A stretch of DNA of 64,000 bases from Simkaniaceae bacterium. Its GTDB lineage: Bacteria > Chlamydiota > Chlamydiia > Chlamydiales > JACRBE01. The notes beneath the pieces were generated by a model. The model saw only the letters and a program-made list of their open reading frames with translations. It had not been told where the DNA came from and ran no database searches. Positions 1-55,266 of the stretch are shown one piece after another (the stretch's first letter is position 1; each line of letters opens with the position of its first letter). Made by a program: the position numbers and the translations under genes. The DNA lies in assembly GCA_021734805.1 (NCBI GenBank), contig JAIPIG010000004.1, positions 4,822 through 68,821 on the forward strand. Direction: 5' to 3'.

Positions 1-200
1 GATCCTATCGCAATCACCGAGGAGGCCGACATGCAAACGGCACATGTGACTAAAGGAATCGCCGTAAGAGCAATGGCTGCTAATGCGATCGCTGAAATAA
101 GTACGGTTTTTTTAAGGAATTGTGACTGTTGAGGTTGCAATGATTTAGTCAAATCAACCCTAGAGAGGGAGTCATTAACCCCAAAAGTTAAATGAGCCAT
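1..200 (-). CDS. Partial CDS (first 66 codons, runs off the window start): hypothetical membrane protein, Inc-like hydrophobic block
   Basis: My own translation of the minus strand from the ATG at 198-200 gives MAHLTFGVNDSLSRVDLTKSLQPQQSQFLKKTVLISAIALAAIALTAIPLVTCAVCMSASSVIAIG. It stays open to the window edge. A polar N-terminus is followed by a ~35-aa hydrophobic stretch. No family recognised. Confidence 0.35.
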   Translation of the reverse strand, partial: MAHLTFGVNDSLSRVDLTKSLQPQQSQFLKKTVLISAIALAAIALTAIPLVTCAVCMSASSVIAIG

Positions 201-280
201 ATTTAACGGTCCTTATTATATTATTATGTAATAATTATAAACCGTTGATAATTAAAAAACTATAGTAAGTATTATTTTAA

Positions 281-1192
281 TTATGTTGTTTTAGGAAATG
301 GAATGTTCATAATATCTTCAGCAGCGATCGTGTGAGGAAAAATCTTTTGTGCTTCTTCTTCATGCCTCTTCGAATCAGAATAGCGGGCTGAGTAATGTGT
401 TAAAACAAGCTGTTGGACTCCTGCGCTTTGGGCAATTTCAGCCGCTTGAGCGGCTGTGAGATGAAGGTACTCTTCGGCAAGATGCTTATGTTCATTGAGA
501 TACGTCGCCTCACAAAGCAATAACTTAGCTCCCTTAGCAATCTCGATTGCCGCTTGACATGGCTTAGTATCAAGCACAATGGCAAAGCTATCCCCTTTAC
601 GAATCCGGCTCACCTCTTCAATCAAAACCGTTTGATCTCCAATCGTTATTTTTTTATGTTCGAGAAGCTCTCTCATCGCTATCCCGCGAATGCCTCGAGC
701 TTTGAGCTTTTCCTTATCAAATTTAAGTTCATCGGGCTCAGTCACTCGGTAGGCGATGTTGTGAATGCCATGCTTGAGAAACCGGGCTTCAATGACAAAA
801 GATTGATCTTGATGCACAACACCCTCATGTTCAATAGGATGCTCAATAACCTTAATTGTCTCATGGTAGCTTGTGCTATAGCGGAGGCGATCGAAATACT
901 TTTTTCCACTGGCCGGATAATAACAGTGAATGGGATGTTTTACTTTATCGAGGTTGAGGCGCATTAGCATGGAACCGAGCCCCAAGCAATGATCTCCATG
1001 GAAATGACTAATAAAAATGCGGGTAACGCAGGGCGGTGCCACATCGGCAAAGATAAATTGCCGCTGCGTTCCTTCACCCGGATCAAATAAAAGCCCTTCA
1101 TTATTCCAGCGCAAAAGATACGCCCCATGGTTGCGCTTGCGCGTAGGCTGCTGTGAGGATGTTCCCAATATGATGAGATCTCTAACGCTCAT
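281..1192 (-). CDS. rnz: Ribonuclease Z (metallo-beta-lactamase fold tRNA 3' endonuclease)
   Basis: 303-aa ORF with N-terminal [22 protein letters not shown] and the HxHxDH zinc motif ([12 protein letters not shown]) typical of short-form RNase Z/ElaC. Confidence 0.85.
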
Positions 1193-3088: not shown

Positions 3089-3125
3089 CCAATTCTTCAA
3101 TTCTTCAATTTATTTCGGTATAACC
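3089..3125. repeat. Solo right terminus of the family-A palindromic element, with an internal 8-bp duplication (ATTCTTCA twice)
   Basis: CCAATTCTTCA[ATTCTTCA]ATTTATTTCGGTATAAC matches the right end of the full copy at 62966-62996, including the flanking ACCTC. No partner left end is nearby. Confidence 0.75.
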
Positions 3126-5011
3126 TCTTTTAATTTTGCAATTCCTTCAGATGCTATCGTATAGGCTTGATCAACCCGGTTCGGTTTATCAGGATAGCGC
3201 AGTCTAAGTAAATCCTTTCTAACCATGGATGTAAGAAATCTGGAGCGCAAGGCATCCGGGTTCCTCTGAAGAATATTTCCTAACTGTTTTCGATTAATCC
3301 AGCGCCCTTTACATAGTTTTAAAATCATCTGTTCCATGTCTTCCGAAAACAACTTTTTCATTTCCCTTGCAGTCTGAGCGATTATATACATTTCTTCCTC
3401 CTCCAAATGTACGGAGTCAGGGTCCAAATGTACGGAGTCAGGGTCCAAATGTACGGAGTCAGGGTCCAAATGTACGGAGTCAGAGTCCAAATGTACGGAG
3501 TGGAATTGGGAAGGAATAGAATATCGAGTCCACCGACCTTTACCATTTTGCCGTAAAAGCCCCCTACTCACGAGATCTTGAAGAAGTCGCGTCATATCCG
3601 CAGTATGTTTCCCGGTGATTTCACACATTCTCATGTTATCAACATATCCTTCTACATCTGCTGTCACTAAGGCTTGAATTTCTAATGGTTGAAATTGCTC
3701 GAATTCAGACCGATAAATATTTTTAAGTCGAATAAGAGAAGTATCAGGGATTAAGCTAATCATTGGAAGAATCCACAGTATTCGATCGGGCTGCACTTGC
3801 TCTCTCATAATAGGTTTACGCCAATGCTGAGATTCCCACCCTTTGCATATTTTGTCTACTCCTGATCCAGCTTTTTCAGCTGCACCAATCATCATAAACA
3901 TGGTTTGTAAAGCCTTATTTCTACATTCGCTTACATTACCACGCCAAAGTTGATCAATAGATATCAATAGGGCTCCGGGATTAGACAACTCAAAACGATC
4001 CGGATATTTTTCAATGATGATACCACCCTGACCGGAATAATCAGCATGAATAAGAGCATTTACTAAGGCCTCTCTAATTGCAATATGAACACCACTTTCT
4101 CCCCTGCGAAATAACTCAGCATCAAGTTGAAATGGTATTTTCAAGTCAGCATTTAATTTTTGTATGACCCTAATATAAAATTGGTATAAATTTCCCGACC
4201 AGGTTCCATCAAGCGTCAAGCGATCAGTCCAACGAACATGTGGATCATTTGATAATTTTTCTCGAAAATCAACTTGATATTGAGGGATCGCTTCCTTTAA
4301 AATTTGCTCCTGACCATACATTAAAAGACCTGCAATAGTAACTCCTTCTTGCTCCGTTTCTCGTGAATATCTATAGGCACCTAATTTAGATAAAAATTTT
4401 TTATCATCCTCTTCCAACCATGGATGTGTCGGTTTATGAGAAGCAAATCTCTGTCTGTATTGCCTTATACTGGCTAAATCCAAATCATTTATTGTTGCAT
4501 ATGGAATTATACGTTGATCTGCTGAGTATTCAGAACGATCTGCTAACATGTGAATGATCTCTTGTTGCGTACAATGATAATCCCCATCAAAATTCCGTCG
4601 ATATGTTCCTAAAAAGGGATTTTGTCCTATAAAAATTGGTTTTTGAAAATATTTAGCACGAGGAATATGGATAGATAATATTAATCCCTTAGCTGTTTCA
4701 ATAACCCTTAAATGCTCTTGACTTAATAAATTAACGCTAACCTTACCGCGATTATTAATTGTATTCCAAAAATCTTTTTTTATTTGATCAATCTTTGATA
4801 CGCCACTGATTTGCCCATCATTTTCAACCCCTAATAAAATCATTCCGCCAAATGAATTGGCCATTGCACTATAAGTTTCCCACAAACTTTTAGGCAATCC
4901 ACCTTTGGCTGATTTAAATTCAATATCTTCTCCCTCTTCTAATAGCAATTGAGATCTAATCTCATTTAGACGGATAGAATTTCTAGATGATACCATGATA
5001 AAACCATTCAC
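3110..5011 (-). CDS. AlbA_2 (Schlafen-type) / HATPase_c_4 / winged-helix protein; 'RecG-like putative transcriptional regulator' class
   Basis: 633-aa ORF. N-terminal EDIEFKSAKGGLP...SAMANSFGGMILLGVENDGQISGV fits the AlbA_2 pattern. Central REALVNALIHADYS...IIIEKYPDRFELSNPG fits the HATPase_c_4 pattern. Two wHTH-like C-terminal segments are separated by a DSVHLDP heptad array. Confidence 0.75.
   Translation of the reverse strand: MNGFIMVSSRNSIRLNEIRSQLLLEEGEDIEFKSAKGGLPKSLWETYSAMANSFGGMILLGVENDGQISGVSKIDQIKKDFWNTINNRGKVSVNLLSQEHLRVIETAKGLILSIHIPRAKYFQKPIFIGQNPFLGTYRRNFDGDYHCTQQEIIHMLADRSEYSADQRIIPYATINDLDLASIRQYRQRFASHKPTHPWLEEDDKKFLSKLGAYRYSRETEQEGVTIAGLLMYGQEQILKEAIPQYQVDFREKLSNDPHVRWTDRLTLDGTWSGNLYQFYIRVIQKLNADLKIPFQLDAELFRRGESGVHIAIREALVNALIHADYSGQGGIIIEKYPDRFELSNPGALLISIDQLWRGNVSECRNKALQTMFMMIGAAEKAGSGVDKICKGWESQHWRKPIMREQVQPDRILWILPMISLIPDTSLIRLKNIYRSEFEQFQPLEIQALVTADVEGYVDNMRMCEITGKHTADMTRLLQDLVSRGLLRQNGKGRWTRYSIPSQFHSVHLDSDSVHLDPDSVHLDPDSVHLDPDSVHLEEEEMYIIAQTAREMKKLFSEDMEQMILKLCKGRWINRKQLGNILQRNPDALRSRFLTSMVRKDLLRLRYPDKPNRVDQAYTIASEGIAKLKEVIPK
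3402..3501. repeat. 21-bp perfect or near-perfect tandem repeat, about 4.75 copies, in frame inside CDS 3110-5011
   Basis: The unit TCCAAATGTACGGAGTCAGGG repeats at 3402, 3423, 3444 and 3465 (one substitution), with a partial copy at 3486. It encodes (DSVHLDP)n. Confidence 0.95.
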
Positions 5012-7727: not shown

Positions 7728-7912
7728 GCTCGACTTTGTAACTTATTGTGGGCCCGAAGGCCTCGAGATATTTGTTTTCGGAGGAGTTATTAAAACCGGG
7801 AAGGGGGTTTTTACCCCTTCCCGGTTTTAATAATCTCCTAGTTCGACCATAGGTCGAGCGTCCGAGAGCAAAAGATCGAGGCAGGCGGGCCCAACAAGTT
7901 GCAAAGTCGAGC
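7728..7912. mobile_element. Family-C palindromic MITE-like element (~185 bp), full copy
   Basis: The ends are AGCTCGACTTTGTAACTT and AAGTTGCAAAGTCGAGCT. A central 18-bp perfect stem ATTAAAACCGGGAAGGGG / CCCCTTCCCGGTTTTAAT lies at 7789-7806 and 7814-7831. A near-identical copy in opposite orientation lies at 47189-47372. No ORF. Confidence 0.85.
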
Positions 7913-8050
7913 TTAGCTCATCCCGCCATGAGATTGCAAGCCAAAGAGCTTCCTCATGACAATACGATTTAGCGCCCAAAAAAATTCTATTACCCTAATC
8001 GCCATTTTTTGACGAGAAAGAAACTATCCTTTTGGTTTATAATCATTGCC

Positions 8051-47117: not shown

Positions 47118-47188
47118 TCCCTATCTCCTTTTCCATATCGTTATTTCATTTATAACCTAAATAACGGGTTTATACACAAATGAATTTA

Positions 47189-47372
47189 AACTCGACTTTG
47201 CAACTTTTTAGGCCCGCCTGCCTCATCTATTTGCTCTCGGGCGTTCGACCTATGGTCAAACTGGGAGATTATTAAAACCGGGAAGGGGTAAAAAACCCCT
47301 TCCCGGTTTTAATAACTCCCCCGAAAACAAATATCTCGAGGCCTTCGGGCCCAAAAAGTTGCAAAGTCGAGT
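47189..47372. mobile_element. Family-C palindromic MITE-like element (~184 bp), full copy in opposite orientation to 7728-7912
   Basis: The ends are AACTCGACTTTGCAACTT and AAGTTGCAAAGTCGAGTT. The central 18-bp stem lies at 47271-47288 and 47296-47313. TTAAA sits directly on both flanks. The reverse complement aligns with 7728-7912 along the whole length. Confidence 0.85.
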
Positions 47373-47505
47373 TAAATATTTACTCTATAGACAGAGGGCA
47401 TCATTTATGCTATATTACTCCCCTATTCACGTCTGAATTTAGATATTGGGAATATACCGACTCCCTAAAGCTTAAGTTCATCTGTGTTATCCTATAGGGG
47501 GAAGC

Positions 47506-52672: not shown

Positions 52673-53107
52673 TCAATTTCCGGCCATATTCTTACGCAAA
52701 ATGAGATGATTTTCCATACCTAATCTCTCATATCTAACTTCATCCATGATCCGATTCGTTAAATAAATCCCTAATCCTCCCTCCTCAATTTCTTCAATCT
52801 TATCCGATGTGGGCTCTCTTGGCATCAACATGGTAGGATCAAATTTATCACCCCAATCTGTAATTTCAATCTGAAGGTGGTTAGGATCTTCTTGCCACAA
52901 TTCAATTTCTATTGGCCCACTCTTTTCGTGATAGGCGTAATTCATAATATTCACTGCCATTTCTTCAACGGCTAATTCAATTTGTTTTTTGCTTTTATAT
53001 TTCGAAAAACAATCATTTAAAAATACATGGACAAAATCAATAATCCCCTGCAAATCTTCCGTATTAGCATGAAATCTCTTTGTTATTTTATTCTCTTCCA
53101 CGGCCAC
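52673..53107 (-). CDS. rsbW: Anti-sigma-factor serine kinase RsbW/SpoIIAB-like (HATPase_c_2)
   Basis: 144-aa ORF containing ELAVEEMAVNIMNYAY, ITDWGDKFDP and EEGGLGIYLTNRIMDEVRYE. The synteny rsbW-hyp-dacC matches Chlamydia. Confidence 0.75.
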   Translation of the reverse strand: MAVEENKITKRFHANTEDLQGIIDFVHVFLNDCFSKYKSKKQIELAVEEMAVNIMNYAYHEKSGPIEIELWQEDPNHLQIEITDWGDKFDPTMLMPREPTSDKIEEIEEGGLGIYLTNRIMDEVRYERLGMENHLILRKNMAGN

Positions 53108-53137: not shown

Positions 53138-53312
53138 TATACCGAAATAAGTTGAAGAATTGGTTTTTATCTTCGCCGGCATCCTCGACTTTTTACCCTT
53201 AATTTTTTGACCTATCTTCAATAGGATCAAAAAATTAAGCCGGCTAAAGCCTGATAAAAATTCGAAGCGCCATCAAAGCTAAAATCCCAATTTTTCAACT
53301 CATTTCGGTATA
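53138..53312. mobile_element. Family-A palindromic MITE-like element (~175 bp), full copy
   Basis: The ends are TATACCGAAATAAGTTGAAGAATTGG and CCCAATTTTTCAACTCATTTCGGTATA. The reverse complement of 62817-62991 matches along the whole length. No ORF. Confidence 0.85.
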
Positions 53313-53351: not shown

Positions 53352-54008
53352 TTATTTGCTTACAACACCTAAGGCAACATTGATGGAAGTGATAATTTTC
53401 GAGGCAAGTTTTTGATAAAGGGGCATTTTAGAAATTGATTGGGCATCTTGCTCAGCATCAAGTTGACCCAGTGAAGTATTCAAAACCGTTTGCTGCCTAC
53501 CCATAGCATCGCTGTAAGCTAAGTCGTGATAGGAAAGAGAATCAACATAGTTATAGTGAATCGATTCCTCAACTTCAAAAGGATCGATCAACTTTTTTCC
53601 GGAAGATTGATCAATTAATGTGACACGAACACGGATCATTTGACGGCTTTCTGTTGGCGAAAGATGATTTGTTAAGGCATCCGTTTGATCATTTGTTTGA
53701 TATTGATAACCAATTTCCCTGTGGTCTTGATCGAGAATTTGAACGGCTAATAAGGCTCTTGCATCCCGATTTTGAAATGTTAAGAGTGGACTTTGATTGA
53801 CCTCATGAATAAGCGCTTCCGTTAAAATCCCTTTAACATCCCCCCGAATAAATGGGACTGTAATCGATGTAATATCTTGAGACTTAACAAATTGATAACC
53901 ACAGCCGGAAAAAAAGAGAGAAAAAAAACACACGAAAATCAATCCCTTTATCGTTGAACCGGAGCGAAAAAGAGGATTCGATAAGATGATGGATTTATCC
54001 AATGGCAT
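53352..54008 (-). CDS. Putative lipoprotein (LptE-like, tentative)
   Basis: 218-aa ORF with a hydrophobic leader ending in the lipobox-like FFSGC, followed by GYQF. Its start shares one nt with the upstream gene's stop (TAATG). Confidence 0.45.
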   Translation of the reverse strand: MPLDKSIILSNPLFRSGSTIKGLIFVCFFSLFFSGCGYQFVKSQDITSITVPFIRGDVKGILTEALIHEVNQSPLLTFQNRDARALLAVQILDQDHREIGYQYQTNDQTDALTNHLSPTESRQMIRVRVTLIDQSSGKKLIDPFEVEESIHYNYVDSLSYHDLAYSDAMGRQQTVLNTSLGQLDAEQDAQSISKMPLYQKLASKIITSINVALGVVSK

Positions 54009-55094: not shown

Positions 55095-55175
55095 GTATAC
55101 CGCTCGTGATTCAAGAGTTATTTTTTTTGTCGCCGGCTTCTAAAAATTCCAACTCTTGACTCACTCCCGGCATAC
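55095..55175. mobile_element. Family-B palindromic element, short form (81 bp)
   Basis: GTATACCGCTCGTGATTCAAGAGTT ... AACTCTTGACTCACTCCCGGCATAC form terminal inverted repeats. It equals the long copy at 60548-60725 minus the segment between its two GCCGGC sites. Confidence 0.8.
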
Positions 55176-55266
55176 TAGAATACCAGAGTTTAGCATAAGA
55201 TCGACTTTAATGCCAAACGCGAAAATCATAGCAAATGCAAAAAAATAACTTCATATAAACCCAAAA

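Follow-up and report, generated by a model that had tools for sequence, protein, structure and literature searches.

The 175-nt repeat at positions 53138-53312 of the window (the whole stretch of 64,000 nucleotides that was analysed) belongs to a family, here called family A, that is most probably a non-autonomous DNA transposon (MITE) of the IS630/Tc1-mariner type. The probability of this reading is put at about 0.87. It bears out the interpretation in the earlier note, since all of the proposed checks that could be carried out favoured a MITE of this type. The element has no coding capacity, and an IS630-family DDE transposase would be supplied in trans. The terminal inverted repeats of 26–31 nt are the putative binding and cleavage sites of this enzyme, which would excise the element and paste it into a TA dinucleotide, whereby the TA would be duplicated on both sides. 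The likeliest source lineage of the transposase would be the genome's own 1132-bp IS630-family insertion sequence (IS), pieced together from contigs C8 and C21 and encoding 349 aa; a lost or unassembled close relative of this IS would be an equally possible source. That the whole element is a palindrome is probably a by-product of its origin or maintenance, via inverted duplication or homogenisation of the arms.

The genome searched is a 1.8-Mb draft in 54 contigs with a G+C content of 41% (labelled G000), and the window lies within its contig C22. The following features of family A were found in the window:

53138-53312, + strand: full-length copy 1 of the putative MITE, 175 nt; this sequence was the reference for the genome-wide BLAST and for the hairpin fold
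53140-53310: element proper of copy 1, TACCG...CGGTA, with the flanking TA at 53138-53139 and 53311-53312
53138-53163, + strand: left terminal inverted repeat of copy 1, TATACCGAAATAAGTTGAAGAATTGG
53287-53312, - strand: right terminal inverted repeat of copy 1, reading inward TATACCGAAATGAGTTGAAAAATTGG
62817-62991, - strand: full-length copy 2 of the putative MITE, inverted with respect to copy 1 and 96.6% identical to it
21691-21757, + strand: internally deleted derivative of 67 nt, in which an ACT microhomology links the left 53 nt to the last 12-14 nt of the right end
3097-3122 (C22:7918-7943), - strand: solo family A-type terminus with 2/26 mismatches
19194-19219 (C22:24015-24040), - strand: solo family A-type terminus with 3/26 mismatches

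The identity between copy 1 and the reverse complement of copy 2 was calculated by BLAST over 176 columns (E = 7e-78), and the same arms were recovered by a repeat finder run on the window. Copy 1 starts with TATACCGAAATAAGTTGAAGAATTGG and copy 2 with TATACCGAAATGAGTTGAAGAATTGG, which have TATACCGAAAT(A/G)AGTTGAAGAATTGG in common, and each copy ends with the imperfect complement of its own start. In the family as a whole the inverted repeat reads TA followed by TACCGAAAT(A/G)A(A/G)TTGAAGA(A/G)TTGG, with two differences between the 26-nt ends of the consensus. The imperfect complementarity extends through the entire unit and includes an inner stem, CTTAATTTTTTGA...TCAAAAAATTAAG, around CCTAT/ATAGG. 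The predicted fold of the whole unit is a single long hairpin of roughly 80 bp, with an RNA folding energy of -63.4 kcal/mol against -26.1 ± 3.5 kcal/mol in 200 shuffles (z = -10.8) and a DNA folding energy of -40.6 kcal/mol (z = -9.2). Thus the description in the earlier note, of near-identical inverted twins with complementary ends, an inner stem and the potential for an ~80-bp hairpin, was accurate down to the positions. No open reading frame of 60 aa or more overlaps either window copy, and none spans any of the 22 full copies in the genome. A small difference among the copies lies in alignment columns 141-143 (positions 138-140 of copy 1, within ATCAAAGC), where the sequence is CAAAG in some copies and its reverse complement CTTTG in others. 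A 5-nt inversion seems a better explanation than three substitutions, and the swap weakens rather than preserves the pairing with the other arm.

Such a fold raises the question of whether family A is a structured RNA, that is, a small RNA gene or a cis-regulatory hairpin (a stabiliser of mRNA, an RNase III site or a terminator) that was spread or retained for the benefit of the host. Besides the very stable hairpin, compensatory changes at 3/62 predicted pairs agree with this idea: an A-U/G-C change in the inverted repeat, an A-U/U-A change in the inner stem and a single C-G/U-A change. However, about 20 one-sided changes break pairs, and paired changes in the inverted repeats are also expected of a transposon, because one transposase binds both ends. 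The earlier note had named a conserved structured RNA as the reading that would overturn its own, and the search of Rfam came out against an RNA gene, as no family reached its gathering score. The best match, to the plant microRNA model MIR7504 (31.1 bits, threshold 83), is at the chance level for a long palindrome, and PK-repBA followed with 24.7 bits (threshold 45). Promoter-like and terminator-like sites were likewise no more frequent than in shuffled controls.

The BLAST search of the whole genome with copy 1 yielded at least 22 full-length copies of 175-176 nt on 14 contigs, 2 copies interrupted by other insertions, several cut at contig ends, and about 20 shorter fragments. When the 26-nt end was searched with up to 5 mismatches, 85 termini were found. 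The pair in the window is therefore part of a much larger family, and the additional copies that the earlier note had called for do exist. Full copies are 87-99% identical to each other and fall into a subfamily of 12 copies with a median identity of 96%, which includes both window copies, and a subfamily of 9 copies with a median identity of 91%. From these medians the two subfamilies would differ in age, and the recent spread proposed for the window copies is plausible, since they belong to the younger one.

The 67-nt derivative is informative about mobility. Its junction (CTTCGACTCATTTCGGT; ...CTTCGACT joined to CATTTCGGTATA) recurs at an unrelated locus, C36:50793. The simplest reading of an identical junction at two loci is that the deleted form transposed after it had arisen, which would make this derivative an element that was mobile in the past. 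Further copies carry different internal deletions with 3-7-nt microhomologies at the edges, and internal deletion at microhomologies is the usual route by which such elements shrink. Several irregular copies were also recorded. At C41:49898-50109 and C32:60453-60760, a family A copy has its terminal 15 nt duplicated in tandem (CTCATTTCGGTATA repeated). Over 344 nt these two contig ends share 99% identity, and the assembly may have represented a single locus twice. At C35:10132-10429, a copy is split by an insertion of ~120 nt that has hairpins of its own and no clear target duplication. In the window, about five tandem 21-nt units (TCCAAATGTACGGAGTCAGGG) at 3381-3506 adjoin a solo family A terminus.

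The 22 full copies are intergenic without exception. Their spacers lie between tandem genes in 9 cases, divergent genes in 7 and convergent genes in 2, while 4 copies are at contig edges. The genes next to the window copies are as follows:

52673-53107, - strand: RsbW-like anti-sigma kinase gene; copy 1 lies upstream, 30 nt from the start of the longest open reading frame
53352-54008, - strand: LptE-like lipoprotein gene; copy 1 lies 39 nt downstream
61498-62811, + strand: hisS; copy 2 begins 5 nt after its stop codon
63087-63854, + strand: Mip-like FKBP gene; copy 2 lies 95 nt before it

One public Logan contig contains a locus with an identical Mip-like protein, and this contig stops inside copy 2. 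Many copies are located 5-50 nt from gene ends, which is a further point in favour of a regulatory hairpin. However, neither the orientation of the copies nor the type of spacer (tandem, divergent or convergent) shows a preference, and the spacer counts reveal no bias towards the 3' ends of genes. Its absence from the closest relatives (see below) also speaks against retention for host benefit. On balance, a structured RNA is a very unlikely explanation. According to crude ORF calling, the 3' ends of two genes, C13:5875-6807 and C18:32975-34789, run 13 nt into a family A copy, which supplies their last codons and stop.

Every copy is bounded by TATACCG...CGGTATA, while the sequence further out is unrelated among copies; related elements in other chlamydial genomes are delimited in the same way. 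Since the outer TA never varies, it could be either a duplicated target or part of the element, and a comparison of the copies cannot decide between the two. The decision came from a paralogous empty site: the copy at C48:27629-27803 is inserted in a repeat of family C, an unrelated family described below. Its left flank, a single TA and its right flank together give an ungapped alignment with 10 family C copies that are uninterrupted, including one in the window (47318-47377). It follows that the insertion added the element plus 2 bp. A model without duplication is 2 nt too short at this site and a model with a 4-bp TATA duplication is 2 nt too long. The junction has a single mismatch, a G-to-T change that creates the TA, and the same variant is present in the family C copy at C48:31180. 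The duplication of TA on insertion, which the earlier note had considered compatible with the ends, is thus indicated by one informative site, so that the evidence may be called good but not abundant. Junctions between abutting elements lend further support: in one case (CGAGCGGTA-TA-TACCGAAAT) two elements have one TA in common, and in another (CGGTA-TA-CCGGGAG) an element is inserted into the terminal TA of its neighbour.

These boundaries also bear on a second type of mobile hairpin. REP/BIME-like elements and those of the IS200/IS605 type move as single-stranded DNA with the help of a hairpin-recognising Y1 (HUH) transposase, and family A resembles them in being hairpin-forming, intergenic and multi-copy. 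However, elements of this class have asymmetric subterminal hairpins and no target duplication, whereas family A ends in long, true inverted repeats and duplicates TA. Moreover, no match to Y1_Tnp (PF01797) was found in the whole genome, while control genomes were positive, and 175 nt is far above the 20-40 nt of REPs. The lack of a Y1 transposase, combined with the long inverted repeats and the TA duplication, makes this mechanism scarcely credible for family A.

A search of the whole genome with Pfam DDE_3 gave matches at five places. An overlap of 101 nt links contig C8 (reverse strand, 785..1) to contig C21 (from base 102), and the joined sequence is a 1132-bp IS with an open frame of 349 aa. 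As it has been joined across two contigs, this frame is presumably intact in one physical copy. The protein scores 203.9 bits against the NCBIfam IS630 equivalog (cut-off 100) and matches DDE_3 with 6e-31, in addition to HTH_33, HTH_29 and HTH_23. The left end of the IS is TATACCGGTCATCAATGAAGAGTTGG (from the copy on C7) and the right end is TATACACAATCAAACTGAAGAGTTGG; the two differ from each other at positions 8-16. Ends were compared with that of family A by anchoring them at the terminus, for which the chance expectation is 7.0 ± 2.3 of 26 and P(≥18) is about 1e-5. The results were:

Own IS, right end: 20/26
Own IS, left end: 18/26
Intact IS of genome G010 (L036), right end: 20/26
IS of genome G132 (L038), right end: 20/26
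IS remnant of genome G040, end of the remnant: 22/26

The best matches of family A are all right ends or the end of a remnant. The best matches of a second MITE family, family B, are all left ends (22/26 for G101, 20/26 for G010 and 19-20/26 for the genome's own IS). This suggests that both arms of family A may be of the right-end type and those of family B of the left-end type.

The 150 genomes sampled from the order include 15 others with homologous transposases of 38-61% identity. The corresponding ISs have a common end architecture of TA-TACC(G/C), where the first hyphen marks the edge of the element, followed by nine variable positions and T(G/C)AAGA(A/G)T. Genome G074 (L037) contains 8 identical autonomous copies with the boundary TA-TACCG...CGGTA-TA and differing outer flanks. 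Family A has the same TA-TACC(G/C)...GGTA-TA boundary as the chlamydial IS630 elements (the genome's own one, G010, G074 and G132), as well as their T(G/C)AAGA(A/G)T box at end positions 16-22. Unlike family A, these ISs are autonomous, 1.1 kb long and encode a transposase of 345-350 aa. Positions 8-16 distinguish their left end from their right end, while family A has an end of the right type on either side.

For the cognate IS that the earlier note had advised looking for, there is a related but not identical candidate: an IS630 element with related ends is present in the genome (18-20/26), and closer ends are known from other chlamydiae (20-22/26), but an autonomous IS with exact family A ends was not found among end pairs 0.7-3 kb apart in the right orientation in the draft genome. 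Since draft assemblies break at repeats, the exact partner could be hidden. Two further IS630 copies were rejected as partners. The copy on C18 (ends TAGTACTTCCACTTGAAAC) matches family A at only 11/26 positions, and the copy at C10:1668-2790 has different ends and an in-frame TAG. The C18 element (~40-1150, ends TAGTACTTCCACTTGAAACTTACCC) appears intact in its own right, with a 351-aa frame, and is located at a TA adjoining a MITE end. Contig C8 (1-5558) is made up of mobile-element debris: it carries fragments of an IS66-family transposase and the 5' part of the IS630 element, along with two ~237-aa paralogues that are also found on C2.

It is quite possible, though at rather less than even odds, that family A is a relic, that is, an immobile family of IS630-type MITEs whose cognate IS has been lost and which the resident IS630 copies are unable to move. 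The ends of the genome's own IS match at only 18-20/26 positions, and the draft yielded no IS with exactly matching ends. The copies have diverged by 1-13%, and decayed fragments and solo ends are numerous. Against this, pairs within the younger subfamily are up to 99% identical, the genome has a transposase of the right lineage that appears intact, and the breaks in the draft could hide an exact partner. Under the preferred reading, of a MITE served in trans by an IS630-family transposase, family A may still be active, with the enzyme of the genome's own IS lineage as a candidate agent.

The distribution of the end among chlamydiae is patchy. A degenerate pattern of the 26-nt end matched 70/401 sampled genomes of the order, belonging to 53/216 genera, while the reversed control pattern had zero matches in all 401. 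None of the four closest genomes, which are of the same genus and family, has the pattern. A separate scan of public genomes with the end pattern was far less informative and gave only one outside match, in a Rhabdochlamydiaceae MAG. In many positive genomes paired ends are 138-150 nt apart, and elements sampled from nine other genera are near-perfect hairpins of 162-175 nt with folding energies of -74 to -114 kcal/mol. Their interiors are unrelated to that of family A, and overall identity is 51-61% where they can be aligned. When the MITE interiors of G010 were compared with the subterminal sequence of its IS, the copies proved too heterogeneous for a conclusion. In one arm of the related elements from other genera there is a Shine-Dalgarno-plus-ATG motif, AAGGAGGCGCCATGAATTT, which is degenerate in family A and might be a leftover of the transposase start. 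This patchiness suggests that the IS lineage has spread horizontally and that palindromic MITEs have been generated repeatedly or are still being generated.

The comparison of orthologous spacers suggested in the earlier note was successful only in part. In G001, a genome of the same genus, the spacer orthologous to that of copy 1 is 25 nt long and lacks the element, compared with 244 nt here, but at only about 70% DNA identity the site is too diverged for a TA to be read. Synteny around copy 2 is not conserved in G001.

The elements of other genera remain fully palindromic despite their differing interiors, an observation that would also fit a structured RNA. Elements of 160-175 nt from distant genera have the same 26-nt ends, unrelated interiors and near-perfect palindromes throughout, and on this basis it has been considered whether selection keeps the hairpin at full length. 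The hairpin could be needed for transposition, either as a folded single-strand or cruciform intermediate or because elements are born by inverted duplication of one IS end; alternatively, the host could have adopted it as an RNA hairpin that shapes the expression of neighbouring genes. Selection of this kind is regarded as unlikely. If it were real, the patchy occurrence of a single end type over 53 genera would trace gene flow between host-sharing obligate intracellular bacteria. In the favoured MITE reading, the hairpin would have no host function.

Several other repeats were encountered. Family B, which was mentioned above, is represented in the window at 55096-55177, 60548-60727, 61397-61442 and 15378-15422. 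It has the ends TATACCGCTCGTGATTCAAGAGTT / TATACCGGGAGTGATTCAAGAGTTGG and occurs in a short form of ~80 nt, a long form of ~180 nt and as solo ends. Families A and B have in common the TATACCG terminus, a AAGAGTTGG box and a GTCGCCGGC interior motif. Family C is a MITE family unrelated to A and B, located at 7746-7915 and 47187-47356 in the window and also at C27:63539-63900. It is about 170 nt long, with the ends CTCGACTTTGCAAC... and a central GC hairpin (AAACCGGGAAGGGG...CCCCTTCCCGGTTT). In one case family C has inserted into a copy of family A, duplicating 5 bp (ATCAA). Also in the window, 10036-10427 and 12111-12613 are tandem paralogous segments with 72-89% identity and internal 42-nt repeats. 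Elsewhere in the genome, three paralogous genes with 81-85% DNA identity (C9:139-1109, C9:3162-4239 and C23:2086-3135) encode proteins with leucine-rich-repeat-like C-terminal arrays (LPETLTAL... units), and these are probably an expanded effector family.

Family A itself is ordinary selfish DNA, and both the class of element and its mechanism are textbook material that will not surprise a specialist. Its practical weight lies elsewhere. The repeats break assemblies, as several contigs of the genome end inside copies. Annotators should be aware of copies within a few bases of gene ends, two of which supply the last codons. The occurrence of the end type in 70/401 genomes, together with its absence from the nearest relatives, implies that the IS630 lineage and its MITEs have moved among environmental chlamydiae, so that they can serve as a marker for horizontal exchange among obligate intracellular bacteria. 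A literature search found no published description of MITEs in Chlamydiae, which is not proof of absence.

The comparisons with known systems are made by description; in anatomy and mechanism family A is of one kind with RUP and Nezha and, less closely, with the Correia elements. The Correia elements (CREE/NEMIS) of Neisseria are about 100-155 bp long. They have 26-bp inverted repeats, duplicate TA, can form long hairpins and exist as long forms and as short, internally deleted ones. Their ends create promoters, and they carry IHF and RNase III sites; they are not known to have a cognate transposase. Family A agrees with them in size class, 26-bp repeats, TA duplication, hairpin and deleted forms, but the likeness is a looser one. 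Unlike the Correia elements, family A has no promoter or terminator signal above chance, and an IS630 lineage with related ends has been identified for it. The Nezha MITEs of cyanobacteria were reportedly described by Zhou et al. in 2008 together with ISNpu3-like IS630 elements. Like family A, they are IS630-derived bacterial MITEs with a TA duplication and a patchy occurrence among related genomes, although their host group is unrelated to the chlamydial host.

The remaining comparison is with RUP (repeat unit of pneumococcus) of Streptococcus pneumoniae, an element of about 107 bp that Oggioni and Claverys are said to have described in 1999 together with IS630-Spn1. Both RUP and family A are small and non-coding, with ends that resemble those of a resident IS630-family IS and a TA duplication, and both have many intergenic copies, subfamilies and internally deleted forms. 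Family A differs from RUP in that its host belongs to another phylum, its ends match those of the IS at 18-22/26 positions and its whole 175 nt form an imperfect palindrome.
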